DNA of 64,000 nt from an uncultured Myxococcales bacterium (GTDB lineage Bacteria > Myxococcota_A > Bradymonadia > UBA7976 > VGTA01), in assembly GCA_937146725.1 (NCBI GenBank), contig CAKZRU010000060.1, positions 144,498 through 208,497 of the forward strand, written 5' to 3'. How positions within the stretch are numbered: the first letter of the stretch is position 1; the number at the start of each line of letters is the position of its first letter. Below are positions 39,985-62,559 of the stretch, piece by piece. Below the pieces are notes generated by a model. It had not been told where the DNA came from. It made no database searches and worked only from the letters and a program-made list of their open reading frames with translations. A program made the position numbers and the translations under genes.

Positions 39985-40134
39985 GGCCTCAGTTTTAAAG
40001 TTGACCGGTTCATAAACATATTCCACTTAAAGTATAAGCAAAAAAAGATGAGCATAGTAAGCAAGAAAGATGGGATAATCTCAAGATCACGCTGTGCTAG
40101 AGTATAGCTGTGAAAACTAAAGGCTAAGAGTCGC

Positions 40135-45124: not shown

Positions 45125-45140
45125 GATAACCTCCTTAGGT

Positions 45141-45806
45141 TTAACTTAAACATCCAGTCAGAACTGAAACTGGAATTGAGATATTGCCAATGGTGATCAA
45201 TAAAGAGACACCGCAGGCGATATTACGTCGCAAATGATTATACTTGTCATGATTAAAACCAAGAGTTTGCATTAAACTCCAAGTGCCATGATACAAGTGC
45301 AGTCCTAAGCAAGCTTGAGCAATAATATAAAAACCAGCGATTGCAGGATTAGAAAAACCATTCACTACGTTATCGTATACTTTGCCATGAACAATCTCAT
45401 AGCCAGCAACTGGAGCACCAACTGTGAGATGTAATAGGTGATATACAATAAAGAGTAATACGATCACACCACCCCAACGCATAGTGCGAGCGGCATAAGT
45501 GGTCGCTTGACTCACCTGCTTGGCATAGGCCTGAGGGCGAGCTGCCTTATTCAGCTTCCATAATGAGAAAGCCGAAAGAAAGTGGGCGAAAACAGATACA
45601 AGAAGTACAATTCTGGTCCCCCATAAGAGTGCGGGCATCGAGTGCAAAAACTCAGCATAAGCATCGAGTTTTTCCGGGCCCAAGAAGATCTGTAGGTTAC
45701 CGGCCATATGGCCAAGTACAAAACCGATCAGAATAACGCCAGAGATGGCCATGACCACCTTTTTGCCTAGCGTCGTCTGATAGAAGCTGAGCTGTTGAGC
45801 GCTCAT
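45141..45806 (-). CDS. sdhC: succinate dehydrogenase cytochrome b558 (diheme, 5-TM) membrane subunit
   Basis: 221-aa polytopic protein with conserved His heme ligands, upstream of sdhA in the same orientation. This is the order of three-subunit type-B SQR operons. Confidence 0.8.
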
Positions 45807-46105
45807 TCATCCTCCAGTGCTAGTGATAACCCTAACGAGGGTCAATGTTGAGAGTCTATATTGAATGATTAAGGTAAACTCAATCACGAGATAAGTATAA
45901 TAACCGCTCTTTCATACCAAGATCGATTCTCTGCTGACAACTGATATTTAACAGATCTTTCAATCCAATGCTTGGTTTCACCCTAAGCTTTACGATTTTT
46001 ACTCAAACTTAGGCTTGTTAAAGAGCTCATGTTTCGTATTAATAAGCATCATATTATTTAGCTTCTTGAGGTAAAGTTCACAGGAGCCTTTAAAGTAGGA
46101 GTGTA

Positions 46106-46393
46106 TTGATGTCGACCATTAAAGTTGTAGAGCCTCATCAGAAATCTGTTGATCAAGTAAAAGCTGGCCTAAGTCAGTTTGAGGAAATGTTTAAAAAGTA
46201 TGGCGTTAAACTCGCGTGGAATGGTGCGAAGGCCAGTCTAAATGGTCCGGTTTCAGGCTCGATTGCAGTCGGGACTTCAGATATTGCCGTTGAGATTAAA
46301 TTAGGCATGCTCGCAAAAATGGCAGGGATTGATGCGAGTAAACTTGAAAACTCAATTCGTAAGCGCCTCAAGGCGGCTTTGAGCGAACAATAA
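46106..46393 (+). CDS. polyhydroxyalkanoate-system (PHA granule region) family small protein
   Basis: 95 aa. Matches the PHA_gran_rgn family pattern (STIKVVEPHQKSVDQVKAGLSQFEEMFKKYGVKLAWNG ... IAVEIKLGMLAKMAGIDASKLENSIRKRLKAAL). Confidence 0.5.
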   Translation: MMSTIKVVEPHQKSVDQVKAGLSQFEEMFKKYGVKLAWNGAKASLNGPVSGSIAVGTSDIAVEIKLGMLAKMAGIDASKLENSIRKRLKAALSEQ

Positions 46394-46441
46394 GTATAAA
46401 AACCTTAAAAAAGATTTAACAGAGTTCTGATCGAACCGAAA

Positions 46442-48592
46442 TCATTCTTCTAGAATCTGTGTATTCTCTTTATTGGGCAAACTGAGTGTACGGGCCACTC
46501 TAAAGCCAAGATTAAAAAGTCTGGCATTAGGAGCTCGGTGGTTACGACGGGCAATACGAGGACGGTCTTGTTCATCAAAGGCCCCTCCACCACGATAAAC
46601 GCGATCAGACTCACTCCACAAACCTTCGGTATTTGTACTCATCCACGCCTGACTATCATTGGGGGCACCTTCATAGTTTTCATGCCATTCATCCATGACC
46701 CATTCCCAAACATTGCCCACTAAATCACAGAGCCCTTGTTTGGAATGACCCTTAGGATAGCGACAAACCCTCGCAGTCATTTCTTCACCACAACCTTTAC
46801 CCCTTACAAAATCAGAAAGATGAGCAAAGTCACAAGAAGCTGGGTCTGGCCCCCATGGATATATCTGGCGTTGACTAGAGGCGCCTTGAGCAACATAGCT
46901 CCATTCTGCTTCACTCAGCAGACGACCACCAACCCATTGGGCATAACGTAAGGCTTGATACCAAGATACACAGTTTAAAGGATGATCAGCTCGGCCAACT
47001 TGATCCCAATTACAAAGTTGGTCATCTCCCCAGTCTGAAGACTTCAGCCCTTCACTTGAACAAACACCTTGAGCCACACATTGCGCGTATTGGATGACGG
47101 TTACTTCAGTTTTACTCACCTCAAAAGCTGAAACCGGCACGGTATGTAAGGGTCTCTCATTTTCATAGCCCTCAGCAGCTAAAGAACCAATCACGACTTG
47201 TCCTTTTGGGATTTTGACCCATTGTGGATTTGGACTACTGGTGATTTCACGTCTAAATAATTGCTCTGCCTCTTGGGGACTAAGCGTTTTTTTTGGGAGT
47301 GGAGCTTCGCTTACGCTACTTTTGGATTGAGCATGGCTTACTTCCTTGAGTGGAATAGACTGATTCTGTGATTTTGATGAGTCTAAGTTTAGTTGCAGTA
47401 ACCAAAGTATCAAAAGCGTAAAAAAGATAACCGGTATCCACCAACGTTGATCCCAAATGGAATTCTCGGGCAAGGCATCAACAATGATGGCTTCCTCTAC
47501 CGATGAGTCAATACCGAGTTTCTCTGCCGCTAAAGAACCTAGCTCTCGCTCTGCTATGGCATAAAATTGTGGATTGCTTGCTGGCTGGGTATCTAAATCG
47601 CTTGGATCAGAAACAGATTTGGGAATAGATAAGCTCTCTTGCTCAATATCATGTTCAAGTAGGCGCTTATTACTCTGTGCACTGTCTTGTTGGTTTTGCT
47701 TTGAGGCTACATTAAAGTCAACCGTATTTGTTTTGGCTTGAATGGGTTCTAATTTGGGGAGGGCTTGTAAGGCCAAGAGTGCTTCTCGGGCACTTTGATA
47801 ACGAGCACTGGCTCTAAATGCGGTGAGTTGCTTTAAAAACTCGGCTACTGCTTGTGGACAAGCAGGCAGGTCATGTGAAAAAAAACGCTCAGCTTGTAAA
47901 CGTTCATCTACTCTCGCTAAGCTTAAGCCACTCATTGCCGAGAGTACACTCATGCCAATGCCATACAAATCGGTACTCATGCCATAACGCCCACGTAATA
48001 ATTCAGGCGCAATTTCACCACTAAGGGCTTCCTCATCGCTCAATGAGTCCCGAGTCGCTAGCTCTACTAAACTTGGTGAAAGTGGATGTTGCAAGAGAAG
48101 AGTACCTTCGGCCGATCGCCAAATGGTATGTGGCTGTATATTCAAATGCAGTAAGGGATCACCAAGTTGAAAGTCACGTTCGGCATGGATCAGTTCTAAT
48201 AAGCAGAGTACTTCTTCGATTAAACTGATCCCTTCATACAAGGAGAGAGGCTCTTGTAGACTTGCCAGAGATGCGCCTTGAGTAAGTGATTCAACCCAAC
48301 ATAAATGATGAGCTTCCCAAAAAATATCTAAGGTATGAGGCCTGCCGGCTATAACACCTCGCCAACGGTCAAGTTCCTTAAGAACCGCTCTTTTTTCTCG
48401 TTCTTGTCGACTTTCTGTAAACTCTTTCAGTTGAGGACGTGTATAGCATTTGATTTGACATAAACCTTTGGGGCCTTGAGTTTTCCAGACTTGTCGAGCT
48501 TCATCAATAGGCGAAATGAGAGTATAAGCCTCATTTGGACCGATCTTTTCATGGGGCTTAAGAATAGTGTTGCTATTTGTCTGTACCATCAT
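46442..48592 (-). CDS. bitopic membrane protein: degenerate Ser/Thr-kinase-like (pseudokinase) N-domain, TM helix, C-terminal formylglycine-generating-enzyme (FGE/SUMF1) domain
   Basis: The N-domain has a kinase-like layout but HRD is replaced by HAERDFQLGDP and DFG is missing. TM segment WWIPVIFFTLLILWLL. C-terminal FGE-sulfatase motifs HPLNCVSWYQALRYAQW, GNVWEWVMDEW, RVYRGGGAFD, RRNHRAPNARLFNLGFRVAR. Confidence 0.75.
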   Translation of the reverse strand: MMVQTNSNTILKPHEKIGPNEAYTLISPIDEARQVWKTQGPKGLCQIKCYTRPQLKEFTESRQEREKRAVLKELDRWRGVIAGRPHTLDIFWEAHHLCWVESLTQGASLASLQEPLSLYEGISLIEEVLCLLELIHAERDFQLGDPLLHLNIQPHTIWRSAEGTLLLQHPLSPSLVELATRDSLSDEEALSGEIAPELLRGRYGMSTDLYGIGMSVLSAMSGLSLARVDERLQAERFFSHDLPACPQAVAEFLKQLTAFRASARYQSAREALLALQALPKLEPIQAKTNTVDFNVASKQNQQDSAQSNKRLLEHDIEQESLSIPKSVSDPSDLDTQPASNPQFYAIAERELGSLAAEKLGIDSSVEEAIIVDALPENSIWDQRWWIPVIFFTLLILWLLQLNLDSSKSQNQSIPLKEVSHAQSKSSVSEAPLPKKTLSPQEAEQLFRREITSSPNPQWVKIPKGQVVIGSLAAEGYENERPLHTVPVSAFEVSKTEVTVIQYAQCVAQGVCSSEGLKSSDWGDDQLCNWDQVGRADHPLNCVSWYQALRYAQWVGGRLLSEAEWSYVAQGASSQRQIYPWGPDPASCDFAHLSDFVRGKGCGEEMTARVCRYPKGHSKQGLCDLVGNVWEWVMDEWHENYEGAPNDSQAWMSTNTEGLWSESDRVYRGGGAFDEQDRPRIARRNHRAPNARLFNLGFRVARTLSLPNKENTQILEE

Positions 48593-48619
48593 TTCCTCAA
48601 TTTAGGACAAGCCTAGAGC

Positions 48620-49912
48620 TTAAGGGTCTGCTTCGTATTTCTTATAATATATGATTACAGCTGCACTGTATATGGCAAGAAAGCTCCATTCAATCATTCG
48701 ACGCCCTCCTCTAAAAATGAGGGTAATACTTTGAAAAATAAGCAAGCTTTGTAGGGTAATGATATACGCGCGATCTTTTAGATGAATGATACGATCAAGT
48801 CTAAATAGGTTCTTTGTTTGTTGTAAAATAAATACATACAGCATGAGCACAGTGGGAATCCCCAAAGTGGCAAGTTCTCCCATATAGTAGTTATGCGAGG
48901 CGCGATCATGTCCATGATCGATCTGTATAAAGTCTTCAAGTAATCTAAATTGGGCAAAGCCAAAGCCAAAAAAGGGATACTCATATATTGTTCTAAGGGC
49001 ATTTTGTAAAATCGCTTGGCGGTCATGAACCGAAGCATCTTCAAGTTGCCATCTTAAAAAGAAATACTCAAGGCGATCAGGGTGCAGAATGATGATCAAG
49101 CCAAAAACCAAACCTAATAAAATAGCTCCGATGATAATTTCACGTTTTCTGTGTCTAAATGACCAAAGCAGGGCAATGGTAAAAGCGACTTGTGCGCCTC
49201 GAGATACGGTTAAAATAAGACCAAAAAGAACCAAGCCTCCTAAAATGGAAAACATAAGTCTGATCCAGCGCTTAAAATGTGGGACTGAGTTCATGGACAA
49301 AGCAATTAAGGCTCCGGGACCGATTAAGCCTGCAAAACTATTTGGTTGCCCAACTAAACCCACAAAGCGTCTTGAGTCTCCATCTAGGTAAAAGCCGACC
49401 AATACATGGACAACACATGAAAAAAGAATCATCCATAAAAATAAATGGAGTTGCCTTTCAGTACGAATGAGATCAACCAGCATAAAAAAGCCGGCAATAT
49501 AAAGACATTGTCGTACATAAAGGCCGGTGACTGTTTCTGGAGCTGGCCCCTGTAACCAACTTAAACCTACGCCAATCAAGTATAAGATAAGAAAGGGCCA
49601 AGCTTTTGGAATCTGTAAGGATACAGAGCGATTAAAGCGCCAAGTTGGCCAATAGGCCAATAGTAAAGCGAGTGCAAAGTCACCATATCCAATTTTAGCA
49701 AACCCCAAGGGCACAAAGAGATCATCAAAGTGGATGCAAATTGTGAAGATGACCAACCAAAGCGAACTTAAGTGGGTGATCAAGAATGAACTTACGATCA
49801 CAACAGCTAACATAAGAATGGGTAAGGGAGAGCCGGTTGACAGCCAACCCACAGCAATACTCATTAACAGGGCAAAGCCAATGATAAACATAGATGTGAG
49901 TCTACTATTCAC
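48620..49912 (-). CDS. O-antigen-ligase-like (Wzy_C/WaaL/PglL family) polytopic membrane protein
   Basis: About 10 predicted TM helices. Conserved TVSRGAQ loop motif and the WaaL-type ASHNYYMGELATLG histidine motif. 4-bp overlap with the upstream lipoprotein gene. Confidence 0.7.
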   Translation of the reverse strand: MNSRLTSMFIIGFALLMSIAVGWLSTGSPLPILMLAVVIVSSFLITHLSSLWLVIFTICIHFDDLFVPLGFAKIGYGDFALALLLAYWPTWRFNRSVSLQIPKAWPFLILYLIGVGLSWLQGPAPETVTGLYVRQCLYIAGFFMLVDLIRTERQLHLFLWMILFSCVVHVLVGFYLDGDSRRFVGLVGQPNSFAGLIGPGALIALSMNSVPHFKRWIRLMFSILGGLVLFGLILTVSRGAQVAFTIALLWSFRHRKREIIIGAILLGLVFGLIIILHPDRLEYFFLRWQLEDASVHDRQAILQNALRTIYEYPFFGFGFAQFRLLEDFIQIDHGHDRASHNYYMGELATLGIPTVLMLYVFILQQTKNLFRLDRIIHLKDRAYIITLQSLLIFQSITLIFRGGRRMIEWSFLAIYSAAVIIYYKKYEADP

Positions 49913-50505
49913 TCCGCCTCACATTGATCTTCAGCCAAGCCATTAATTGCCTCAAGTAGTATTGGCCTTCGCGTATCATCAGGCGCTTCAAGACACCAAG
50001 TAAAGCCTTGAAGACGTTCACCGCCATTGACCTGCTCAAGATTAAAAATCCGCTTACACTCCTGAGTGAGTTGTGGACATTTTTGATTTGTATTCGAGGG
50101 AGAAGACATCATTGCTGTATCAAGACTCATGTCACCAATATCTTGTGGAGTGTACAAAGAAAAGGTGAGGCCATTAGCAACAAAGAGTAGTTCTCGATCA
50201 TCAGAATCATTAAGCTCTTCGATCAATCCCTGCACGATAAAGGAACAGTTACAACGATCAGCTGGGTCAAAAAGGGCCAAAGAACCCTCGCTTGGCCGCT
50301 GATATCTTACACTGACCCCAGCGACTCGATCACCATATTGTCCAAGGTTGAGTTCATATAACTCGGGGGCTAAAATAGAGTTTTCTTGCGTCTCTGTTGA
50401 TTCCTCATTAATCTCTCTCCATACACCACTCACAGAAGCACTTCTTTGGCAGGCGCTAAGCAGGATAATTAGGATAAAAAGTAGAAGAGAGAGCGGCTTT
50501 GACAT
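49909..50505 (-). CDS. small hypothetical lipoprotein (198 aa)
   Basis: Signal peptide with lipobox ILLSACQRS. Translationally coupled to the Wzy_C gene (overlap 49909-49912). Confidence 0.5.
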   Translation of the reverse strand: MSKPLSLLLFILIILLSACQRSASVSGVWREINEESTETQENSILAPELYELNLGQYGDRVAGVSVRYQRPSEGSLALFDPADRCNCSFIVQGLIEELNDSDDRELLFVANGLTFSLYTPQDIGDMSLDTAMMSSPSNTNQKCPQLTQECKRIFNLEQVNGGERLQGFTWCLEAPDDTRRPILLEAINGLAEDQCEAE

Positions 50506-50544
50506 TGAGTGAGTCAGATTTAAGCTTTAGATGACTTGGGATGC

Positions 50545-52098
50545 TTATGGATTAGCGATCAGTGAGACAAGAACATCTCCACCATCACTGTCACTACGAA
50601 TCACTAAATTAGCTTGATAAGCATTAGCGACAGCTTCATCAGCAGGTCGGCTAAAGCTGACTTCAAAGCTTGTGGTTTCTCCTGGAGCTAACATCGCTGT
50701 TTGATCACCGGTGACTGTAAAGAACTCTGCATCACTCCCCTCAATAACAACATCAGATAGGCTCACCGGAGCATCACCTGACGATGTGATCGAAACCATG
50801 GCAGAAGCAGAATCGCCAGCGGCAACCCCATCAAAGCTCAGCATTGAGACATCAACATCAAGAAGCTTGAGAGAAGCACTAAGTTGAGTCACTAAAGGAA
50901 TTCTAAACTCACCATCGACAGCATTATCAGCATCATCCGAACGAACGACTAAAGTCGCTTCGGCGGGCATAGGACCGGCGATATAGTCGAGACGAACGAT
51001 TTGCTCACCTTGCACAGGGACTTGGAATGAGTCATTATCTGCAGCATTAATTCTAAAGGCACCACCTTCAGGCTCAATGGATAAAAAGGCGCTAATTGGA
51101 CGAAGGCCGGTGTTATAAAAAGTCACCGGTTGTACATCAGTCACTCCACTTTCATGATTGAAACTGACTGGTGTTGGCATAATTTCAAGATTAGCAGGGC
51201 GAGCCTCTGAAGTGAGTAAAACTTCAAACTGTGGTTGATCAGGGTCATTACTTTCAATCACCATATGTGCTTGATCTACACCAGAATCTTGAGGATCATA
51301 AGTGACAATTAGACGAAGATAACCGCCAGGATCAATGGATGAACCACGAAGTTCCTCGGTTGAATCAACTGTAAACTCAATACTTCCGCCTTCTGGTGCA
51401 GGGAAGTTCTCAGGATCATTCAGCACAATATTTACAGCACTGATCGACAGAGGAGAGGTCCCATAATTTCGAAGTAGATAATTCTCTGAGCTTCTTCCAC
51501 TGCTTGGGAACTGAATCGCAGCGATATTGCCGGAAATATCAGGTAAGCCCGAAGACACGTTTAAGGTTGCAGTAATACGGCGACCATTTGAAGCATTACT
51601 CTCGACCACTAATTCCGGATTTTCTCCGGTTGCGACCCCATCAAGAGGACGGTAGGTGACAACAATTTGCTTAAGCTGACTCGTTCCAAGGCTTAAGGGC
51701 AAAGACGGACGCTCTCTCAAAATGAGCGTACAGCTTGGCATAACTTCAGGAGTCAAAATGGTAGAGGCATCTAGCATTTGTGTCTCAAAGTCGCAGGCAT
51801 CCAAGCGCTCACGTGCTCCATTAGGACCCACTTCAATATAGATATCGGCAATATTGAGTGGAGCCTCGCCGGTATTACGTAGCTCAATCACCTCACTCGT
51901 TTCCCGAGTACCCACATTGCTTGGTACCAATACTACATTGCGAGGTTCCATTGCGATATTATTTGATTTACGACCCTCAAAGTCACCTTGGCAGGCATTG
52001 ATGAGCATAGCTACAGCTAACAAAGAGCCAAAAGCAAGGCCCTTTTGAACTAGACCTAGGGTCTGTTTTGTCATGAACATAGATTTAAATCCAATCAC
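50545..52098 (-). CDS. lipoprotein with tandem choice-of-anchor-D/ASH-like beta-sandwich repeats
   Basis: Lipobox AMLINACQGD. Repeated modules of the type xVxFxxxxVGxSxxxxVxLxNxGxAPLxIxxI (e.g. LSFDGVAAGDSASAMVSITSSGDAPVSLSDVVIEGSDAEF). Confidence 0.6.
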   Translation of the reverse strand: MIGFKSMFMTKQTLGLVQKGLAFGSLLAVAMLINACQGDFEGRKSNNIAMEPRNVVLVPSNVGTRETSEVIELRNTGEAPLNIADIYIEVGPNGARERLDACDFETQMLDASTILTPEVMPSCTLILRERPSLPLSLGTSQLKQIVVTYRPLDGVATGENPELVVESNASNGRRITATLNVSSGLPDISGNIAAIQFPSSGRSSENYLLRNYGTSPLSISAVNIVLNDPENFPAPEGGSIEFTVDSTEELRGSSIDPGGYLRLIVTYDPQDSGVDQAHMVIESNDPDQPQFEVLLTSEARPANLEIMPTPVSFNHESGVTDVQPVTFYNTGLRPISAFLSIEPEGGAFRINAADNDSFQVPVQGEQIVRLDYIAGPMPAEATLVVRSDDADNAVDGEFRIPLVTQLSASLKLLDVDVSMLSFDGVAAGDSASAMVSITSSGDAPVSLSDVVIEGSDAEFFTVTGDQTAMLAPGETTSFEVSFSRPADEAVANAYQANLVIRSDSDGGDVLVSLIANP

Positions 52099-52134
52099 AG
52101 TAATTGAAAGCGATATAAAGATAAATGAGATATA

Positions 52135-55100
52135 TTAATTACCTCGACGAGGGAAGCATTGGGCATTGTATTCAACGCGAACTCGCTGACCGGGTTGCGG
52201 TACCTGAGCCTCATCAAAGATAATCGAGTTACTCGCTGCATCATAGCTCCAGCCATTACTTCGCATTGACCCATCTACAGACACTTGAATAGAATTACGC
52301 TCAGCAGGTCTTGTTAGGAAGAATTGTACGGGTAAACCAAAGGCTTGATTACCGATTTCTTGTAAGGGTTGACCAAAGTCAGTGGCACAAATGCTATACA
52401 CACGGCCATTGGTACGATTAGCGACCTCTACATAACGGCTACCTGCACTCGCTTCACCACCCGCACCTTCGCAGCGTGCGGCTTGTCCATTTTGAGAGCC
52501 AACAATAGCGTTTGCATGGAAACGGCCTTCATTTCGGAAGCCCTTAATATTTTTAAAGAAATCAACATAGAAGTTAAGGTTTGCATCCGAGAAATCATCT
52601 TCATCACTAACAAAAACAAGCTCTAAAGCAGCTTCCTCGCGTAAGAATCCACGATTTGCTCCGCCACAAAAACCTTCAATACAAGTATCAGGAGCAACAC
52701 AGTCATTGTCACTACTGCAAGCAAGGCCTGTGTCAAAAATTAAAGGATCTGAAAGAGCAGCTTGTGCGGCGGCAAGACCTTTTTCAGTTCCTGAGCCACT
52801 TGTGCCTACATCGGCGGTATTCTCAAATTGACTCGCAACGGAAGGTGAACGAGACATGATTCTTGGTGACCCTTGTAAGCGACCGGACTCGCTACTGTCG
52901 TCCATGTCAGTGGTGACAACACCAATTTGGTAATCATTTTGGAACTGTTGAGCCCCATTGATAAAGCGAGCAAAGTTAGATGCTAGATTATCTTGCTCCT
53001 CGCTCATAGAACCTGAGTTATCGATGACAAATAGTACATCAACAGTTTGTCCACTGGTTTGTACAAACTCATCCACTTGATTTGAGTTGGCAACCCCCTC
53101 ACCCTCTAAAGGTACACGAAGCTCAGGCGCATCTGCGGCATCGGAAATAAAGACAAGCTCACATTGATCAGCACCAAGATTACCAGGCTCATAAACCAAA
53201 TTAACTTCGGCAGGGCTGTTACGAGTCACCACAATGCAACCGTCTTGGTCGGCAACAGGTCGATTGGTAATTAAGAACTCACTACAGCCGGGGCCCTCTA
53301 AGCTCATGCCGGTGATACAAAGGTCTACGATACCGGTGTTATAAACAGTGACGCGTTCTTCTCTTGAGGCACAATCACCTGCGGTCACTTGACCAAAGTC
53401 CAAACGGGCCGGAATTACCTCAATATTACTTTCACCAGAAATTCCATTGAGGGTCGCCTGAGCCATCTTGGGTTGATTGGTGAAAGGATCAAAGTAATTA
53501 AGGGTATATATGGCAGAGTCTTGATTAAAGAGTTCAGGAGAATAAGTGATTTCAAACGGCAAGAATTGACCAGCTGCTGCTTGATTACCAATAATAGGCT
53601 GAGTAAGCTCAAAGAAAACATCACCTAAGCCCGGAATGGGAATGGGAATCAAGGGGTCAATGCTTTGATTTTGTAGCTCACAGGAGCCGGTTCCTCGGTT
53701 GACCGCACGGAGTTGTCGAGTCACACTACGTCCACGGGTGACAAGTCCAAAGTTCATACGGTTTGGGATAATTTGCATTTCACAGGTGGGTGAACCACCA
53801 CCTGTTACGGATAATGGAACGGTTAACGTTGGCGTGTCAGGACTGCTATTTTCAATGACAAGGCTATCCATGGCTCCTGCGCCTTCTCGTAAACCATTGT
53901 TTTGGTAGCTGACTTCAATTAAGCGCGTCATACGTGTGTCAAGAACAAAGGGAACATTGACATTTGGATCAACCCAACGCCAAGAGAAACCGTCGGTTTG
54001 GCTTCCTAAGCCTACCTCGGTAATATCCAAAGGAGCATCACCACAGTTGAGGACTTCTACCAAGAATGGTGCACTTGGCTGACCTTGAGCAACAACTCTA
54101 AAGTCCACAGCTTCCGGCGTTGTTTGAATACAAGGTTGCTTGAGACGACCGCTTAAGGGCACAGAGACTTGACCTTGACATTCTCCAAAGGAGACCGAAA
54201 CCGCTGTACGATGTCCGCCAGGCATGGCAGGTGTGTAACTAACGCCAAAACTGAAAGATGCCTCGGGCTCAATCACAGCAGGAACATTCACATCATGTAA
54301 GGTAAATTGGGCATTTAGCTCAGGTGAATTAACCGCCAATGCCAATTGCTCAATATTTAAAGGATCTAGGCCATTATTCGTGAGTGTGACAGTGGTAACA
54401 GGGCTTTCTACGCCCAAGTCATGCGGGCCAAACTCAACGGCTGCCGGAGAGATATCAACCAAGGGCTGAAACTCAATTCCACTTAGCTCCACACGCAAAG
54501 GAACACCATTATCACCTACATATGAGACGAGTAAAGTGCCCTCAGCCGCGCCTCGAACACCTGGTGTATAACTAATGCCAACTCTAAACGAATCACCTTG
54601 GCGAATTGCTAAACCAGCAATGTCATTTACGATTTCTGCTTCCGAAGCGCCTGAACGCAAGATTTCAAAGTTCTCAATATTAAATGCTGAAGAACTTTCT
54701 TGGGTTAATGAAGCGCTTTGTAAGGTGACCGGTACAACCCCAAAGTTTCTGAACTCATGCCAATTTAAATCATTGCTGTCACAAGGGTTTAAAACAAACA
54801 CGGCTCGGGTATCATAGATTAAATCAGACTGCCCAATTGTGGTTTCAATCGGAACATTGGTCACATTGTTGGTTTGGGCTGCAGATAAGCTATTATTAAC
54901 GATGACCAAACGACCTTGATCTAAGCCTTCGTTAGAAGGGCTATAGTTAAGAACAACCTCAATGCTTTCATCAGGTTCTAAGTTAAAGTTTCCATCGATG
55001 CCTTCAGGCATAACTAGGTTGAATTCTAAACTACTTAGCTCACTTGATAAGTACATTTCGACTACTCGTAATGTACCCTCACCAATATTTTTGATTGTGA

Positions 55101-55353
55101 TCGTTTTTGAGGTTGTTTCGCCTACAGGAACAGCGGTCAAAGTAATGGGATTCGGGCTGACATTAATCTCAGGACTACCGCCCCCATTAAAATTACTTTC
55201 GTCATCACAAGCAAAAGAAAAACAGCTGACTAAGCCGACTAAGATTAAGCATTGGATAAACACTGAAGAAAACATTGCAGAAAACACTGAAGCTGTTTTG
55301 TGCTTGTTCAATGGTTGATACACTGCCCTATTTTGTATGGATAACATGATCAT
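52135..55353 (-). CDS. 1072-aa lipoprotein with choice-of-anchor-D-like repeats and a C-terminal von Willebrand factor A domain
   Basis: Lipobox LVSCFSFACDDES. Repeated ASH/COA-D-like modules. vWA with MIDAS DVLFVIDNSGSMSEEQ...VVTTDMDD. Confidence 0.7.
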   Translation of the reverse strand: MIMLSIQNRAVYQPLNKHKTASVFSAMFSSVFIQCLILVGLVSCFSFACDDESNFNGGGSPEINVSPNPITLTAVPVGETTSKTITIKNIGEGTLRVVEMYLSSELSSLEFNLVMPEGIDGNFNLEPDESIEVVLNYSPSNEGLDQGRLVIVNNSLSAAQTNNVTNVPIETTIGQSDLIYDTRAVFVLNPCDSNDLNWHEFRNFGVVPVTLQSASLTQESSSAFNIENFEILRSGASEAEIVNDIAGLAIRQGDSFRVGISYTPGVRGAAEGTLLVSYVGDNGVPLRVELSGIEFQPLVDISPAAVEFGPHDLGVESPVTTVTLTNNGLDPLNIEQLALAVNSPELNAQFTLHDVNVPAVIEPEASFSFGVSYTPAMPGGHRTAVSVSFGECQGQVSVPLSGRLKQPCIQTTPEAVDFRVVAQGQPSAPFLVEVLNCGDAPLDITEVGLGSQTDGFSWRWVDPNVNVPFVLDTRMTRLIEVSYQNNGLREGAGAMDSLVIENSSPDTPTLTVPLSVTGGGSPTCEMQIIPNRMNFGLVTRGRSVTRQLRAVNRGTGSCELQNQSIDPLIPIPIPGLGDVFFELTQPIIGNQAAAGQFLPFEITYSPELFNQDSAIYTLNYFDPFTNQPKMAQATLNGISGESNIEVIPARLDFGQVTAGDCASREERVTVYNTGIVDLCITGMSLEGPGCSEFLITNRPVADQDGCIVVTRNSPAEVNLVYEPGNLGADQCELVFISDAADAPELRVPLEGEGVANSNQVDEFVQTSGQTVDVLFVIDNSGSMSEEQDNLASNFARFINGAQQFQNDYQIGVVTTDMDDSSESGRLQGSPRIMSRSPSVASQFENTADVGTSGSGTEKGLAAAQAALSDPLIFDTGLACSSDNDCVAPDTCIEGFCGGANRGFLREEAALELVFVSDEDDFSDANLNFYVDFFKNIKGFRNEGRFHANAIVGSQNGQAARCEGAGGEASAGSRYVEVANRTNGRVYSICATDFGQPLQEIGNQAFGLPVQFFLTRPAERNSIQVSVDGSMRSNGWSYDAASNSIIFDEAQVPQPGQRVRVEYNAQCFPRRGN

Positions 55354-55516
55354 AACCTTTGGAGTGTGGAAGTGGATTTACTAAGTACTTAGCGTATGTA
55401 TATGATTGAGTTCAAAGCGGTTTGCCACATAACAAGTGTTTTGTCACGATTAAGTCGCTTATTGATTACACAGAATAGAGCACAAATGTTTGCTGGCATG
55501 AGTAAGCAAGTTCCCA

Positions 55517-57562
55517 TTATTGAGCATATTCGCCTTCTTCATACACTCGATCAACAGGTGTAACAACCGGACAAGTCAAGGGGTCTTCACACCAATTAAT
55601 GGTAGCGATATGCCAAAGTTGGTTCAGTCGGTTTAATTCACGATCAACAAACTCACCAAGGAGCTCACCTCTAGCGAAAATTCTTAAGGTCACATAACTC
55701 TCGTGTTCAATCGTAGGATCACGACCGGCCTCTCCAAACAGGCTTTCGGCTCTAAAGTAGATGGCACCTACTTCATAGTTTACGCCAACTTCAGGACGGT
55801 CAAGATTGATATTTTCTGGCCCGGCCCCATTGATGTCATCGATGTCAAGGCTAGGATTATCCAAGAAGTCTCCAACATTGCCCCAATCGGGTGAAGTATT
55901 TTGGAAATAACAGTCCCAAGTGCCGGCTGAGCTTCCCCAGCGTTCATTAGCATTTTGATGCTTAAAGTGTAGGTCAACATCGGTGCCTGAGTCATCGGTT
56001 TCATCAGGATCAGCAGGAGTTGCCCAAACAAGTTGAATATGTAAGTCCTTTTCGGGGACAGCTTCAATCACTACAGTGGCGACTTCATTGGGCGCACAAC
56101 TCACTTGACCAAGATTATCATACACCTCAAGCTCAATTACATAACGACCGGCTAAATCGACAAAGAAAGTCGCATTTGGAGTCATTTGATCGTCTTCGGG
56201 GCCACCACCAGCAGGATCTGCGTTACTAAATAAGTTTTCAACCACTTGGCTCACACTTCCGCTTGGTCGCTCAATGACATTCCAAACCCAGCGTTTTACC
56301 TCACCGCCAGGATCGGCCGAAGGAGAACCATCTAGAGTGATGATATCCAATGGAGCTACCTCATAAAGTTCAGTGCTTGCGACTGGAATTGGACAAGAAT
56401 TTTCAACTCCACGCCCAAATAGATCTACCGGAATAGGGTCTATCTGAGTATTGGTATACAATAATAAACGTCCACCATAATTCTGTTCGGCAACAGGCCA
56501 AAAACCAACTTCAAGCGCTTCGGATGGAAAAGCTTCTCCTGCACTGGTTGCCGGAAGCTCAATCAAGTCGCCCTGTTCATTTGGCTCTAATATAGAACTC
56601 AAACCAAACTCAGCGCCTTCAAACTCAATACGTGAGATTTTAAGAGGGGCTCCACCACAACTTTCAATAATGAGTGGTAGGGTATTGGGAGTTTCCGCTT
56701 CCCGATCGGCAACAAGCAATGCTGAACCAAAATCAAGATTACTTGGCGTTAGTTGAATACAAGGTGCTGCTCCGTTTGCACGTAAAGGTAGGCTAAAACT
56801 ACTCGCTTGTGGGTCATTGCTTAAAATGACTAAGTCACCTCGATCAGGACCAGTGCTTGGTGGCGCATAACGTACGGTGACTTCTTTAGCACTACCTGCA
56901 TCGATTGTAATCGCCTCAAAGCTTTCTTCCGAACTGACTTCATCATCAATAATTAAGGCAAAGTCTTCACTGCCATCAATATATAATGAATTGATTAGAA
57001 GCGGTCCTTGGCCAACATTTCTGATGGTCGCTACTAATTCAGATGTCTCACCAGCGTCCACGCTACCAAAGTCAAGACTATTGGGCGATACAAAGAGATC
57101 AGGTATAGCATCAGAACTACGAATCGGTACTCTTAGCTCACGCTGTTGAGTACTATTTGTTTCAATAATGACTTCATCAGTTGGGCTTACGCTTGAGCCT
57201 TCAGTAGGGCGATAAATAACCTGCAGGATTTCACTGCTTGTTTCGTCTGCTTCCAAAACAATAGTATCGGGAAGCGGATCACCAGTTTGTAGACGGATGT
57301 CGAAAGGGGCTTCCGCTCTAGACAGGCGGATATTCACCAATGAAATAGGAGCACTGCCTACATTTCTTAAACTCAATTCCTGAATTGCTTCTTGACCTAC
57401 CGGTACAGAAGGAAACAGTAAGGTTTCAGGTGTAGCGCTCACTAAACCACTTTGAATGTTACTAAAGTCATCCTCAGAATCACAGGCCGTAAGACCTAAT
57501 GAGAAAACAAGAGCACCCATGGTAATCATTGAGTGTACTGAATCAAAAAAAGGCCTTCGCAT
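55517..57562 (-). CDS. lipoprotein, choice-of-anchor-D repeats + PKD-like domain + conserved C-terminal domain (paralog A of tandem pair)
   Basis: Lipobox LGLTACDSED. COA-D-like repeats. PKD-like LDIITLDGSPSADPGG...WVW. C-terminal block shared with the neighbour (NPSLDIDDINGAGPENINL ... WHIATINW). Confidence 0.65.
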   Translation of the reverse strand: MRRPFFDSVHSMITMGALVFSLGLTACDSEDDFSNIQSGLVSATPETLLFPSVPVGQEAIQELSLRNVGSAPISLVNIRLSRAEAPFDIRLQTGDPLPDTIVLEADETSSEILQVIYRPTEGSSVSPTDEVIIETNSTQQRELRVPIRSSDAIPDLFVSPNSLDFGSVDAGETSELVATIRNVGQGPLLINSLYIDGSEDFALIIDDEVSSEESFEAITIDAGSAKEVTVRYAPPSTGPDRGDLVILSNDPQASSFSLPLRANGAAPCIQLTPSNLDFGSALLVADREAETPNTLPLIIESCGGAPLKISRIEFEGAEFGLSSILEPNEQGDLIELPATSAGEAFPSEALEVGFWPVAEQNYGGRLLLYTNTQIDPIPVDLFGRGVENSCPIPVASTELYEVAPLDIITLDGSPSADPGGEVKRWVWNVIERPSGSVSQVVENLFSNADPAGGGPEDDQMTPNATFFVDLAGRYVIELEVYDNLGQVSCAPNEVATVVIEAVPEKDLHIQLVWATPADPDETDDSGTDVDLHFKHQNANERWGSSAGTWDCYFQNTSPDWGNVGDFLDNPSLDIDDINGAGPENINLDRPEVGVNYEVGAIYFRAESLFGEAGRDPTIEHESYVTLRIFARGELLGEFVDRELNRLNQLWHIATINWCEDPLTCPVVTPVDRVYEEGEYAQ

Positions 57563-57622
57563 GAGCGATCCCTCGATTATTTTAAAAGTTCAAATAAAGT
57601 GAGTAGCAGTCACAAGTTAAGG

Positions 57623-59800
57623 TTAAGGCGCTTCCTCATAATAACGATCAATTTTGGTGACCAAGCCATCAGGCCAAGAGATAGAAGCAACCTCCCAGAA
57701 GTGTTTACGACCGTTCATAAGTTTAAAGCCTGGATCTCCATCATCGGTGTAATCCCAAGTGGGAACACCATTGATGAATACACGCACAAAGGCTTTCATG
57801 GCACCAAATTCCCATCCATCAATACGGTCTACATTTTCGTAATAGTCCACTCCAATCACATACTCACCACCTAAAACACTTGTGTCTTCGGGTACGGCTA
57901 GGGTCAAGTTCTCAGGCCCTGTTCCGCTAAAATCATCTAGGTCTAGGAATGGGTTATCACGCGGATTATCTAATTGTCCCCAATCTGGGTCTGGGTTGTT
58001 GAAGTAACAGTCATATGGTTGTGAGAACCAAGCGCTAGCATTTGGGTGACGCATATGAATATCAAGGTCACCAGAACGCTCTTGACCAAGATCTTGCTCG
58101 TCCACAGCTTCCCAAGAAAGCTGTACTTGAATCGCTTCATCTGGCTCAGCAAGTATGGTCACTACTGCCGGATTACGACAGTCCAAAGAGGTTAAACCAA
58201 ATTGGTCGGTGACGCGAAGTTCGGCAGTGTAATAACCGGGCAAGTCAATAAAGAATAATGCGGTTGGAGAGCTTTCATCGTCAGGACGACCACCATCAGC
58301 AGGTTGCTGCGGGTTGTCAAAGCGTTCTACAAGTTGTGAAACTGAGCCTTGTGGACGAGAAGTGATCACCCACTCATAAGAAACCGGTAAATTGTTTGGT
58401 CCATCTTGATCGACAGAAGGAGAGCCGTCCAAAACGATGGTGTCCAATGGTAACACGTAAAACTCATCTTGAGCTGCTCGGGCTTGGGGACAAATATTTG
58501 CTGTACCTCGTCCCAAAATACTAACTCTTCTTTCCGGAACGACCGGATCATCGCTGATGATCACTAAAGTAGCATTGTAGATTTTTTCTTCGCGCGGGGT
58601 AAATGATAAAGTGATATCTTCACTTGGTCTTAATCCTTGAGAGCTTGCAGCAGGCATGAGCAAAGGTAAGGCTAATTCGCCCTCTAATGCAAAAACACCT
58701 TCGGCATCATCGGTAATGTAGACCTCACTGATGTTAAGTTCAGCGCCACCACAACTTTCGAGTAGGGCCACTTGTGAGTCAGTTCTTGAAACAAGAGAAG
58801 CAGGGAACTCAATGGCTTCTGGAATCACCTCTAAACATGGGTTACGAGAGTTGGCTGTCAAAGGTACAGTATAGGTCTCTTGCCCTTCAGCATTACTGAC
58901 AATCACCATTTCTGCAAAGTCTGGACCAGCCGATTCCGGTAAATAACGAATCTGCATATTTAAGGTGCCACCGCCTTCACCTTCAACATAAGGAGAAATC
59001 CCCGGAATACCATCTTGGTCCGGATCCTCTAAAAGCTCTGGCTGGCGACGGGGGTCACGGCCATCAATAAATGGAGTGAAGTCTTGAGAACCATCAATTC
59101 TCAGTTGATCAATAAATAGAACAGATTGACCGACATTCAATACTCTAAGATCTACAATTCGCTCTTGATTTGCAGGAACAACATCAAAATCTACCGAAGT
59201 TGGATCAACGGCAATTTGAGCAGCACCAGCACTTACACGAACCGGAATATCAATTCTTGCTTTACTAGAATCATTTGGATCAAAAACGTTTGTATCAAAA
59301 TAAATAGCGGCAGAGTCAGCAGCTTCATCTTGTGGAGCATAGGTGACTTTTATCCCAAGCAATTCATTGGGGGCAATTCTAATCGGATAGGTTAGATCAG
59401 CAGTTGAACCTTCTGTGCCTTCAGCAAAAGAGACTTCTTCAAAAGTTTCGCTTTCTGGAAAACGATACTCAATCTTGAACTCACCACTTTGACTTACGTT
59501 AGTCTGAATGATTGATCGAGCAATGATCAAGTCAACACCACCAATATTTTCGATTTCGACTTCTTTGGTGATTTCACGACCTACAACAAGAATAGGAAAG
59601 GTGATTTCTTGGCTGGGGCGAACAATATATTGCGGAGACTCACGTGTTGTCACTCCTGTATTATCGCATCCTGTCAAAATAGATAAAAGTAGGTACAAGG
59701 CCAACAAAGAGACAGTCTGCACCGAATATGCTAATTCAAATCTCGGCTTTATATGTCGAAGAGGCATATGTGATTTCTCCCCAAATAACTTAAGAGTCAT
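57623..59800 (-). CDS. lipoprotein, choice-of-anchor-D repeats + PKD-like domain + conserved C-terminal domain (paralog B of tandem pair)
   Basis: Lipobox LLSILTGCDNTG. Domain order is colinear with the 55517..57562 product (PLDTIVLDGSPSVDQDG...YEWV; NPFLDLDDFSGTGPENLTL ... WEVASISW). Probable true start is MPLRHIK (~59767). Confidence 0.65.
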   Translation of the reverse strand: MTLKLFGEKSHMPLRHIKPRFELAYSVQTVSLLALYLLLSILTGCDNTGVTTRESPQYIVRPSQEITFPILVVGREITKEVEIENIGGVDLIIARSIIQTNVSQSGEFKIEYRFPESETFEEVSFAEGTEGSTADLTYPIRIAPNELLGIKVTYAPQDEAADSAAIYFDTNVFDPNDSSKARIDIPVRVSAGAAQIAVDPTSVDFDVVPANQERIVDLRVLNVGQSVLFIDQLRIDGSQDFTPFIDGRDPRRQPELLEDPDQDGIPGISPYVEGEGGGTLNMQIRYLPESAGPDFAEMVIVSNAEGQETYTVPLTANSRNPCLEVIPEAIEFPASLVSRTDSQVALLESCGGAELNISEVYITDDAEGVFALEGELALPLLMPAASSQGLRPSEDITLSFTPREEKIYNATLVIISDDPVVPERRVSILGRGTANICPQARAAQDEFYVLPLDTIVLDGSPSVDQDGPNNLPVSYEWVITSRPQGSVSQLVERFDNPQQPADGGRPDDESSPTALFFIDLPGYYTAELRVTDQFGLTSLDCRNPAVVTILAEPDEAIQVQLSWEAVDEQDLGQERSGDLDIHMRHPNASAWFSQPYDCYFNNPDPDWGQLDNPRDNPFLDLDDFSGTGPENLTLAVPEDTSVLGGEYVIGVDYYENVDRIDGWEFGAMKAFVRVFINGVPTWDYTDDGDPGFKLMNGRKHFWEVASISWPDGLVTKIDRYYEEAP

Positions 59801-60189
59801 TCATCTTCACTTAGGATTGTTAGGTTCATTAAATATATTAAGCTTATATTGAGTCCTAAAGAAACCCAATAGTCAACAACTTGATGATGTTTCAAGGCTC
59901 GTAGCTAAGAGCTTTGGATTGACCCTTGTTTTAACATGAAACCATAATTTTTAAAGAGCCAATTATTGTGTGTACACTGAAATGGGTCTTGGTTTCCATG
60001 ACTTCCTGTCAAATGATAGATCTAAACCAAGATGAAAAATTAGCATTTGAGTTCTACCTAGGCTTGTGAACTGATCATTTGACTTAAAAATGAGCTTGGC
60101 TTTACATGGGTGCAAATTTTTTCACTGATATGAGTTTATTTCGATAAGTATCTAATAAGTATAGCTAAATCGCAAGTTGATCTCTTTGG

Positions 60190-60239
60190 CTTAAGTCTTA
60201 GTAAGAGCGAATCAAAAAATATGGTTCATCTAAGACTTA
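60190..60239. promoter_or_regulatory. 10-12-bp inverted repeat with 28-bp spacer in the 466-bp divergent intergenic region
   Basis: taagtcttag (60192-60201) and ctaagactta (60230-60239) are exact reverse complements, about 100 bp upstream of the vWA-lipoprotein start. Confidence 0.35.
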
Positions 60240-60266
60240 GCTTAATGTCTACTAGACTTCCTCAAA

Positions 60267-61637
60267 ATGCCTTGCACTATATTATGTAGCTTACTTGAGG
60301 CCTCACTCATAAAACGAGTTCATTTAGGAGATCAATATATGATACGTCGTTATATCTCACTTGGAGTTGCCCTCACTGCGTCGATAAATGTTGCCGCTTG
60401 TGACAGTACAGTGTGGTTAGATGATACTCTTCCCTCACTCACCGCTGTTTACGCATCAGGCGCATGCAAAACTTCCAATAGCGAAATTGATATTTCAGTT
60501 GTCTTAGTCAATCAAGGTGATTCAACTTCATCGAATATATTACCGACGACTCGAGTGGCCAAAGAAGGCGCCACGCCAGTTGAGGAGTTAATTGATAGTG
60601 GCTCGTTTATTTTTAATCCTCCTCCCATTATGGAAGCTAAAGTTCAGCAGCAGCTTCTCGATGATGGAGATGCCTATGGTGAAAGTGAAACCGGTTTAAT
60701 GACCGGAGATCCAAGCACTGTTCAGTTAGCGCCAAAGAATGTTTCCTTTGAGTGGGCTTCTTCTGATCCAAGTGCAGGCCGTATCCCTTTATTTATTCTA
60801 CTTATGGATCAATCTCACTCGGTTTTAGGCCTAAGCCGTTCTGAGCAACGCTTCGGTAGTGATATTGGTCATCAAAGAATTACCTTTTTTAAATCACTCA
60901 TTAATAACCTAAGTGATGATTTTGAAGTTGCCATGCTTACCTTCTCGGGCTTCACAACCGATTATGGTAGCGACAGTAGCGTGGTCAATAAGCCTACTCG
61001 AAACCGTGAGTTAGTAGCTAATGCTTTAGAAGAACTTAAGTTTAGTAATAAGTATCAAGCTCGTACACCACTCAGTCAAGCACTCAATGATGCAAAGAAG
61101 CTTATCGAAGAGCAACCAGCCGATACTTATGATCCCGTGATTGTGGTATTCACCGATGGAGTTGAAGATGGCGACAATACGATGAGTGGAAGTAATATCG
61201 AAGAACTTGCTAGTTTCTTTGTCCAACGTCATGTACCTGTACATACTGTGCAATTGAAAGCTAAGCAGGATACAGCACCCGCTTCAGGCGATTTAGATGC
61301 TGAAGCTGAAAGGCCAAAGCCGTTAGAGGCGATGAGTGCTCTTGCCTGTCAAACCGGTGGTGACTTTTATTATATTCGTAATGCCGAAGACTTTACCACA
61401 AATAATGATCTAGGACCCATGCTTCGTAACCGCCTAACCGGTCGTTGGAGCTTAAAAGTCAACACCGATATGTTTGAGGCTGTTCAAGGTGATGCACCAG
61501 GTGTTATGCTGACCACCGAGCTTGAAGCGACTTTGGCTGGTGAAGTTGAGCGCTTTAATGCAGCTCAAACTATTGAGTCAATTACTAGTACAGTTAAAAC
61601 CGATAATCGAATTTGGATTCTTAACCAAGCGCAATAA
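60267..61637 (+). CDS. vWA-domain lipoprotein. Probable true start is the ATG at ~60339 (MIRRYISLGVALTASINVAAC)
   Basis: Lipobox INVAACDST. vWA MIDAS motif (IPLFILLMDQSHSVLG ... VIVVFTDGVEDGD). SD aggagatcaatat precedes the internal ATG. Confidence 0.7.
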   Translation: MPCTILCSLLEASLIKRVHLGDQYMIRRYISLGVALTASINVAACDSTVWLDDTLPSLTAVYASGACKTSNSEIDISVVLVNQGDSTSSNILPTTRVAKEGATPVEELIDSGSFIFNPPPIMEAKVQQQLLDDGDAYGESETGLMTGDPSTVQLAPKNVSFEWASSDPSAGRIPLFILLMDQSHSVLGLSRSEQRFGSDIGHQRITFFKSLINNLSDDFEVAMLTFSGFTTDYGSDSSVVNKPTRNRELVANALEELKFSNKYQARTPLSQALNDAKKLIEEQPADTYDPVIVVFTDGVEDGDNTMSGSNIEELASFFVQRHVPVHTVQLKAKQDTAPASGDLDAEAERPKPLEAMSALACQTGGDFYYIRNAEDFTTNNDLGPMLRNRLTGRWSLKVNTDMFEAVQGDAPGVMLTTELEATLAGEVERFNAAQTIESITSTVKTDNRIWILNQAQ

Positions 61638-61746
61638 TTAGCCTAATGACCTCAAAGTTTACTTTGCTTAGGTTTCTAGGGCACTAAAGTAGACTTGATT
61701 ATATAAGTAACAGCCTTGCTGTTTTTGTTCTTTCACACCTATAACT

Positions 61747-62517: not shown

Positions 62518-62559
62518 GTGCTGGTGAATCATCCAATATAGAGTACCAAGGAGAGATCA

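Follow-up and report, generated by a model that had tools for sequence, protein, structure and literature searches.

A minus-strand gene string in a Bradymonadia genome as a possible composite of a Glt-associated lipoprotein cassette and a lineage-specific gene trio

The window analysed here, a stretch of 64,000 nucleotides from an uncultured Myxococcales bacterium (Bradymonadia; contig CAKZRU010000060.1, positions 144,498–208,497), carries seven co-directional genes, A–G, on its minus strand (46442–59800). Head to head with them lies the start of an operon that resembles the Glt gliding machinery of Myxococcus xanthus. With slightly better than even confidence, the seven-gene string is regarded as a composite, i.e. 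a Glt-associated adhesin cassette formed by A–D and the lineage-specific genes E, F and G. A preliminary description, made from the letters of the window, had proposed a single module dedicated to the modification and assembly of surface proteins, and had found no known system to match the combination. The single module is at odds with the persistence of A–D without E-F-G in at least 14 distant genomes, and the head-to-head Glt-type cluster, which was missed in that description, gives the combination a known frame.

Conservation of the cassette beside Glt-type genes

Searches with B gave approximately 76 full-length relatives, and the few of these with source names come from Bradymonadia or 'Myxococcales' metagenome-assembled genomes (MAGs). 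Scanning GTDB with a single genome for each species yielded 73 loci. BLASTP, followed by profile hidden Markov models (HMMs) built from orthologs, was used to compare the open reading frames (ORFs) of the fetched loci with the proteins of the window. The block K-J-I-H <-> A-B-C-D, where H–K are the first four genes of the Glt-type operon, is complete in at least 15 species-level genomes with 27–53% identity to the window, and about ten more loci, truncated by the ends of their contigs, are consistent with it. A adjoins the Glt cluster in every complete locus. D diverges fast (27–30% identity in distant relatives), yet holds its position; an exception is locus L016, where C is followed by an unrelated 723-amino-acid (aa) ORF at the place of D.

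In distant genomes the cassette's far side has been rearranged. D is followed there by a protein of about 180 aa with a CxxCxxCC motif and by two proteins without a family match (Pfam to E = 10), and no polytopic membrane protein is present within 5.5 kb downstream of the cassette. E, F and G show no BLAST or HMM match in the compared loci except in those of the closest relative, O_MB67. At least 14 more distant genomes, counted at species level, keep A–D and have no E-F-G in the locus (flank of up to 10 kb).

The near clade, of at least five lineages (the window and four others), displays a different picture. The order A-B-C-D-E-Wzy_C-FGE (FGE, formylglycine-generating enzyme) is the same as in the window on every contig long enough (L002, L082, L083 and L084). 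G is followed in the near clade by a polyhydroxyalkanoate (PHA) granule gene and sdhCAB, except in L084, whose contig ends within G. In the window a gap of 635 bp (45807–46441) lies downstream of G, followed by sdhC/A/B-like genes; at the position of this gap the near-clade relatives carry a 91–92-aa PHA-granule-associated gene on the opposite strand. Near-clade identities to the window are 66–84% for A–C and 46–69% for E, F and G, and the identity of the Wzy_C protein F is 49–55% despite the retained gene order. D and E are 39 bp apart in the window, 14–37 bp apart in three of the four relatives and 185 bp apart in L084. The overlap of E and F, of 4 bp or 1 bp, recurs in three relatives; in the fourth, L084, 124 bp separate the two genes. 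Conservation of gene order, suggested earlier as a check, thus extends to all seven genes in the four other near-clade lineages, but distant genomes keep A–D only. Because E-F-G accompany A–D in the near clade and are absent beside A–D elsewhere, the seven-gene order is a conserved trait of one lineage and not of the cassette as a whole.

Within the window, the ORF listing places A at 57623–59800, B at 55517–57562, C at 52135–55353, D at 50545–52098, E at 49909–50505, F at 48620–49912 and G at 46442–48592, all on the minus strand. Intergenic gaps from A onward are 60, 163, 36 and 39 bp, followed by the 4-bp overlap of E and F and a gap of 27 bp before G. The coordinates match exactly the earlier account of seven consecutive minus-strand genes with gaps of 27–163 bp and one 4-bp overlap. 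The widely conserved cassette ends with D, and E, F and G are confined to the near clade.

The Glt-type operon

H (60267–61637, plus strand), the first gene of the operon, encodes a 456-aa lipoprotein with a von Willebrand factor A (vWA) domain and a DxSxS adhesion site dependent on metal ions (MIDAS). Both the lipobox Cys and the D-x-S-x-S motif are present in 19/19 orthologs. H gives no match to any named gliding model by sequence; in size and class it is comparable to CglB. Near-clade relatives share with the window a DNA block, AAAATnTGGTTCATCT...ATGTCTACTA (60230–60340, plus strand), immediately upstream of the ATG at which H is annotated to start (60267). The true start of H is probably Met25 (MIRRYISLGV...AAC), which would yield a normal lipoprotein signal peptide.

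I (61747–62517, plus strand) encodes a 256-aa outer-membrane beta-barrel that scores 99 bits with TIGR04565 (OMP_myx_plus, cut-off 60) and also matches Pfam OMP_b-brl. By size and position it is a candidate GltA/GltB counterpart, but there is one barrel, not two. J (62602–64000, plus strand) encodes a GltC-like tetratricopeptide repeat (TPR) protein of which 466 aa are visible before the window end cuts it. The partial J is 75–78% identical to full-length proteins of L002 and L086. Full-length relatives of J align near end to end with the GltC model NF033756, with 197 bits (E = 6e-58) in L003, 154 bits in L002 and 142 bits in L086; the equivalog cut-off of this model is 450 bits.

The window ends before the GltD-, GltE-, CglF- and GltJ-like genes, which are known from relatives. 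J is followed there by K, a 1133–1147-aa TPR protein that fits GltD by size, order and central TPR only. An NCBIfam scan of remote K homologs for GltD gave generic TPR matches only (YbgF, BamD, CpoB, PorW). After K there is a 464–525-aa TPR protein with a full-length match of 53–86 bits to the GltE model, among many other TPR matches; since TPR proteins cross-match, the GltE match is a weak one. A 57–81-aa protein matches the CglF model NF033764 (E = 3e-9 and 2e-8). A 622–624-aa GltJ-like protein matches NF033761 with 182 bits (E = 3e-53) in L081 and with 79 bits in the near-clade L086, and in L081 displays an MJ0042 zinc ribbon, a GYF domain (Pfam GYF_2) and the AgmX/PglI C-terminal domain (NF033768). 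The operon order in relatives is therefore vWA lipoprotein, outer-membrane barrel, GltC-like, GltD-sized TPR, GltE-like, CglF-like and GltJ-like. The contig with L083 also carries a GltC/GltE/CglF/GltJ-like operon.

The architectures of GltC, GltD, GltE and GltJ have been published (PMC11761067), and the proteins of the relatives agree with them. From the GltC, GltJ, CglF and GltE model matches together with the agreeing architectures, the neighbouring operon appears to be a Myxococcus-type Glt gliding-transducer cluster. Gliding has been reported for cultured Bradymonadales (PMC7188933). Two other assignments, a Bat-like operon (vWA/TPR, aerotolerance) and a flagellar-collar accessory, were rejected because of the specific GltC, GltJ and CglF matches.

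The M. xanthus Agl-Glt system consists of an outer-membrane platform of GltA/B/C/H/K with the adhesins CglB and CglD, and of the periplasmic and inner-membrane parts GltD/E/F/J. CglB and CglD are vWA lipoprotein adhesins of the Glt machine (PMC9946355; bioRxiv 10.1101/2023.10.19.562135). The operon described here shares with that system GltC-, GltE-, CglF- and GltJ-like proteins, a GltD-sized TPR lipoprotein and a GltA/B-sized barrel. In addition, two MIDAS vWA lipoproteins, the CglB-sized H and the CglD-like C, flank the divergent promoter region, an arrangement that parallels the alpha-I/beta-I 'integrin-like' pair of M. xanthus. There are differences as well. M. xanthus has separate G1 and G2 clusters whereas here there is one contiguous operon, and, unlike the M. 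xanthus machinery, there is one barrel, with GltK, GltH, GltG and AglRQS not nearby.

In relatives, the GltJ-like gene is followed by dapF and then by flagellar genes (L086, 17359–23402; L081, 17370–22167). The flagellar genes beyond dapF encode FlgB, FlgC, FliE and FliF/FliG, or FliN, a sigma-54 activator and a ParA/FlhG-like ATPase. From this gene content, relatives with both Glt-like and flagellar genes probably both swim and glide.

Proteins of the seven-gene string

A signal peptide and lipobox are found at the start of A, B, C, D, E and H, as read from the sequences and ortholog alignments, and the lipobox Cys is invariant in the aligned orthologs of A (20/20), B (24/24), C (21/21) and D (17/17). 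The choice-of-anchor-D model NF012200 is matched above cut-off in A, B, C and D, with 127 bits in C, and the ASH, Cep192_D4 and HYDIN Ig models are also matched by these four proteins, in agreement with choice-of-anchor D. The earlier count of five lipobox proteins (A–E), four of them with choice-of-anchor-D repeats, is borne out by NF012200 together with the ortholog alignments.

An Asp follows the lipobox Cys in most orthologs of A (17/20), C (12/21), D (11/17) and H (19/19), and in A, B, C and H of the window. In E. coli, Asp after the lipobox Cys signals inner-membrane retention, and the sorting rules of Myxococcota differ. The final location of the lipoproteins is thus uncertain. Their Ser plus Thr content is 12.6–16.2%, against 12.2% in the other proteins of the window, so that their description as Ser/Thr-rich substrates was overstated. 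Long Ser/Ala/Pro linkers behind the lipobox are not present in the lipoproteins, as read by eye.

A (725 aa) and B (681 aa) are lipoproteins of the same architecture, with choice-of-anchor-D/ASH Ig-like repeats, a PKD-like domain and a C-terminal domain. As described before, they are tandem paralogs, with 31% identity over the full length (E = 3e-94). The C-terminal domain was earlier noted as shared by the two and of unknown function. It is shared, and shows no Pfam match at E up to 10, TerD included, but a fold search suggests a TerD-like beta-sandwich behind the PKD domain; the AlphaFold2 model of B residues 385–681 has a pLDDT of 89. A suspected resemblance to DUF2135/YfaP was unconfirmed by sequence, and the fold search led to TerD. 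The motif NPxLDxDDxxGxGPENL of this domain is invariant and, by analogy with TerD, could plausibly form a metal-binding loop. The TerD family (2qz7, 2kxt) consists of Ca2+-binding beta-sandwiches with acidic loops; the domain of A and B differs in being extracytoplasmic, borne by a lipoprotein and fused behind a PKD domain.

Further members of the A/B family occur apart from the cassette. A solo A-like paralog (L033–L058) with 35–38% identity is found as a third copy in the MAGs that carry A and B, with no Glt or C/D neighbours, and tandem B-like pairs (L060–L077) with about 30% identity lie away from any detected Glt gene. Distant members of the family, several of them as tandem pairs, are found in MAGs labelled Bradymonadaceae, Bradymonadales, Microvenator and 'proteobacterium'.

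C is a 1072-aa lipoprotein. Its N-terminal 720 residues consist of choice-of-anchor-D repeats and its C-terminal part is the vWA domain described earlier, with the MIDAS motif DNSGS invariant in 21/21 orthologs. The best named match of C is NF052240, a Bdellovibrio MIDAS adhesin (E = 2.4e-13). The corresponding protein, Bd0875, is a surface MIDAS lipoprotein adhesin that acts at the predator-prey junction (PMC11003981). Like C, Bd0875 is lipobox-anchored, has a vWA domain with a DxSxS MIDAS and belongs to a predatory lineage of delta-proteobacterial type. However, the match covers only some 70 residues about the MIDAS and reaches 50 bits, where the cut-off is 700. C is also three times longer, with a stalk of Ig repeats at its N-terminus. 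Residues 729–936 of C also align to positions 608–813 of CglD (NF033765, E = 2.2e-7), with 29 bits against a cut-off of 400. CglD carries thrombospondin/COMP-type Ca2+-binding repeats and an EGF-like Cys-rich stalk, whereas C is without both and displays choice-of-anchor-D Ig repeats instead. Because C does not have the Ca2+-repeat/EGF-like stalk, it is taken as an analog of the CglD-like function class and not as an ortholog. The remaining cassette protein, D, is a 517-aa lipoprotein of choice-of-anchor-D Ig-like repeats.

E is a 198-aa Cys-rich lipoprotein. In five orthologs the residues C19 (the lipobox Cys, 5/5), C85, C87, C143, C150, C171 and C195 are invariant. E shows no family match (Pfam to E = 10), and no relatives are detected outside the near clade.

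F is a 430-aa polytopic protein of the O-antigen-ligase superfamily, an earlier assignment that the Pfam Wzy_C model supports (PF04932, 63.7 bits, gathering threshold 31.7). The TVSRGAQ and SHNYY motifs noted earlier are present, R238 and H340 are invariant in the family, and in a profile alignment these two residues lie opposite the RGA and AHN of WaaL (7TPG). A model of F with a pLDDT of 75 gives a Foldseek match to 7tpg_B with a probability of 1.0 and a TM-score of 0.52–0.54; RodA is matched more weakly. F and WaaL share 17% identity, the Wzy_C domain, the polytopic fold, and the conserved Arg (SRGA) and His (SHN). F also shows a weak match to TIGR03097, an O-ligase model (exosortase-associated). 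For F, WaaL, PglL and Wzy are not told apart by sequence or by fold, the fold search having matched WaaL and, remotely, RodA. Judged from sequence and model, F is probably an active ligase or polymerase of undecaprenyl-pyrophosphate-linked glycans, and from the E/F overlap its gene is predicted to be translationally coupled to E. We know of no pairing of WaaL or PglL with a small Cys-rich lipoprotein such as that of F with E.

With F as the query, a search of 5.8 billion proteins gave 15 matches at E < 1e-5, i.e. 13 at 48–85% identity, one identical and one outlier at 29%. An exact-protein look-up of F found it not on record. No lipopolysaccharide (LPS) core or pilin genes are near F, a difference from WaaL and PglL/PilO. 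The preliminary description had also considered that Wzy_C genes of this kind might lie beside LPS-core genes in other genomes; within 10 kb of the 29% outlier, the one remote homolog examined, no LPS-core genes were called and no lipoproteins A–E were found, and the context is unrelated.

G is a 716-aa protein that consists of a predicted cytoplasmic pseudokinase, one transmembrane helix (hydrophobic, approximately 383–405, read from sequence) and a predicted periplasmic domain of the FGE-sulfatase fold. The fold spans residues 455–701 (PF03781, 158 bits, positions 2–255 of 255), with matches to FGEs of the PDB down to E = 1e-20. However, 'LCHDSYCNRY' of the Streptomyces coelicolor FGE aligns to 'AF--DEQ-DRPR' in G, a stretch free of Cys, and both catalytic Cu-binding Cys residues are missing. 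An end-to-end match of G to PvdO, which is not an FGE, is as good as those to true FGEs; PvdO and GldK/PorK are non-FGE members of the fold. In the kinase part only the C-lobe is detectable (Myt1, E = 1e-5), HLDVKPAN is replaced by HLNIQPHT, DFG is absent and APE is kept, and there is no Pfam Pkinase match. Kinase-FGE-sulfatase fusions are known with the same order as G (kinase-like, transmembrane, FGE-sulfatase fold), but in G both halves are degenerate. Since neither the FGE Cys pair nor the kinase catalytic residues are present, a sensor or scaffold fits better than an enzyme, and G is most simply explained as a non-catalytic sensor or scaffold rather than a formylglycine-generating enzyme. 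Of the earlier assignment, the transmembrane protein with a degenerate kinase and an FGE fold stands, and the FGE-type enzyme does not.

The G ortholog is a single 779-aa gene in L001 (19088–21427, Logan assembly) and is split in L002 (ENA/NCBI, MAG O_MB67) into ORFs of 430 aa (19088–20380) and 342 aa (20400–21428). All other called proteins of L001 and L002 are 100% identical, and the split is a frameshift or an assembly error.

The composite reading, its alternatives and the surroundings of the string

If the string is a composite, A–D would most likely be outer-membrane or cell-surface partners of the divergently transcribed Glt machine. As a MIDAS adhesin, C would be of the CglD-like, beta-integrin-like kind, and A, B and D would serve as Ig-repeat stalks, with the TerD-like C-terminal domains of A and B, going by the fold search and the analogy with TerD, probably binding Ca2+. 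The CglB-like H, encoded across the shared promoter region, and A–D would together connect the Glt complex, as it moves, with the substratum or prey. E-F-G would be a lineage-specific insertion between the cassette and phaP/sdhCAB.

Gene structure, domains, the pattern of synteny and the loss of catalytic residues are observed, whereas the surface location, the adhesin role and the gliding link of A–D and any acceptor of F are inferred. Several points weigh against this reading. The function of A–D is drawn from the neighbourhood alone. For L081 and L086, gene calls up to 10 kb from the cluster include none for the AglRQS motor, GltG, GltI, GltK or GltH; every Glt match is below the NCBIfam equivalog cut-off, and TPR proteins cross-match widely. 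A, B and D have no counterpart among the known M. xanthus gliding proteins. The UBA1238 genome (L031) has K-J-I-H/A-B, with C and D not found within 10 kb. As A-like and B-like paralogs lie away from Glt genes, the family is not exclusively Glt-linked, and as the flanking synteny (dapF, flagellar genes) is partly kept, conservation of the cassette may partly reflect general collinearity. Finally, near-clade E-F-G are always attached to the cassette, so that a functional link is possible there.

The trio E-F-G might instead be an ordinary envelope-glycan unit, i.e. the O-antigen ligase or polymerase of the lineage with a sensor pseudokinase, which came to lie downstream by accident and without a specific tie to the cassette. 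This explanation, which mainly overlaps with what the composite reading says of the trio, is given a substantial minority chance. It agrees with the fast, lineage-specific evolution of Wzy_C ligases and polymerases (F has its 15 homologs at E < 1e-5), with the faster evolution of E, F and G relative to A–C, with the absence of the trio beside A–D elsewhere, and with WaaL as the best structural match of F and the weak TIGR03097 match. However, no glycosyltransferases, flippase or Wzz are found nearby in the window or in relatives, and D and E are tightly spaced (39 bp; 14–37 bp in three of the four relatives) with no terminator-like site.

That all seven genes form one module in the near clade, with F as a PglL/PilO-like O-oligosaccharyltransferase that glycosylates the lipoproteins and with E and G as accessories, is rather improbable. 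All five near-clade lineages have the seven genes in this order, even though F has diverged to 49–55% identity. F retains both the Arg and the His that are invariant in ligase-type Wzy_C proteins, and its fold resembles that of WaaL; on contigs long enough to judge, its orthologs occur only in this context, and E and F overlap. But at least 14 more distant genomes have A–D without the trio, the FGE domain of G is without catalytic cysteines, the lipoproteins are neither Ser/Thr-rich nor equipped with long Ser/Ala/Pro linkers, and PglL is inseparable from WaaL/Wzy by sequence or fold. Of lower probability still is a glycan-tuned focal-adhesion system in the near-clade lineage, in which F together with E would O-glycosylate the A–D adhesins and G would regulate or act as a scaffold.

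For A–D, the question is whether the Glt neighbours are partners. These four may be general or prey-contact adhesins, as Bd0875 is, that are not mechanically coupled to Glt, with the adjacency due to co-regulation or inherited collinearity. The match of C to the Bdellovibrio MIDAS adhesin model (E = 2.4e-13), the A/B-family paralogs outside Glt loci and the partial synteny of other flanking genes all point this way; nevertheless, at 27–53% identity the head-to-head arrangement with Glt is still kept, in contrast to the rearranged far side of the cassette, and this uncoupled alternative is considered unlikely. The Glt assignment of the neighbours could itself be mistaken, the TPR/outer-membrane/vWA operon then being an Nfs-like envelope-remodelling system or a flagellar accessory structure served by A–D. 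The Glt and Nfs systems are paralogs of each other, in relatives flagellar genes are found a few kb past the GltJ-like gene, and GltE-like proteins also weakly match the flagellar collar protein FlcA. Against this stand the matches specific to GltC, GltJ (zinc ribbon and GYF) and CglF, the position of dapF, on the opposite strand, between the cluster and the flagellar genes, and the gliding of cultured Bradymonadales (PMC7188933), which leave this explanation very improbable.

Neither a compact Bradymonadia-type Glt operon locked to four lipoproteins nor the attachment of an E/Wzy_C/pseudokinase trio to the cassette in the near clade was found described in the literature searched. Each component is of a kind already known: Glt machinery, vWA adhesins, Wzy_C proteins and kinase-FGE-fold fusions. 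'Bacterial focal adhesion' gliding by Agl-Glt has been studied almost only in M. xanthus, and the transfer of force to the substratum, with CglB and CglD, is still being worked out. Bradymonadia-type lineages offer a compact, contiguous Glt operon and thus a simpler layout in which to study the outer-membrane module. The four lipoproteins, three of them from undescribed families, are candidates for the surface end of the Glt machine, and C would add a second MIDAS protein of the integrin-like type, carried by a different stalk. The annotation is corrected in that the FGE-fold and kinase domains appear catalytically dead and the Wzy_C gene falls outside the conserved unit.

The intergenic region from which A and the Glt-type operon diverge (59801–60266) carries sequence blocks common to near-clade relatives; its alignment shows a few such blocks and no recognisable promoter type. 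A scan of 45000–62600 for sigma-70 promoters and terminators gave counts not above those of shuffled controls, and is thus uninformative on co-transcription. An Rfam scan of the window gave zero matches.

Elsewhere in the window, a 1417-aa ORF (5369–9622, minus strand) and a 450-aa predicted lipoprotein (38674–40026, minus strand) show zero Pfam or NCBIfam matches. A 2550-aa ORF (13951–21603, minus strand) matches the Ca2+-repeat region of CglD at residues 2331–2478 (NF033765, E = 3e-16) and also bears a choice-of-anchor-Q domain; from these sequence features it may be another giant surface adhesin. A 561-aa protein (31942–33627, minus strand) resembles the outer-membrane-exchange protein TraB (NF033763, E = 8e-21) and also displays OMP_myx_plus and OmpA-like parts and thrombospondin-type repeats.

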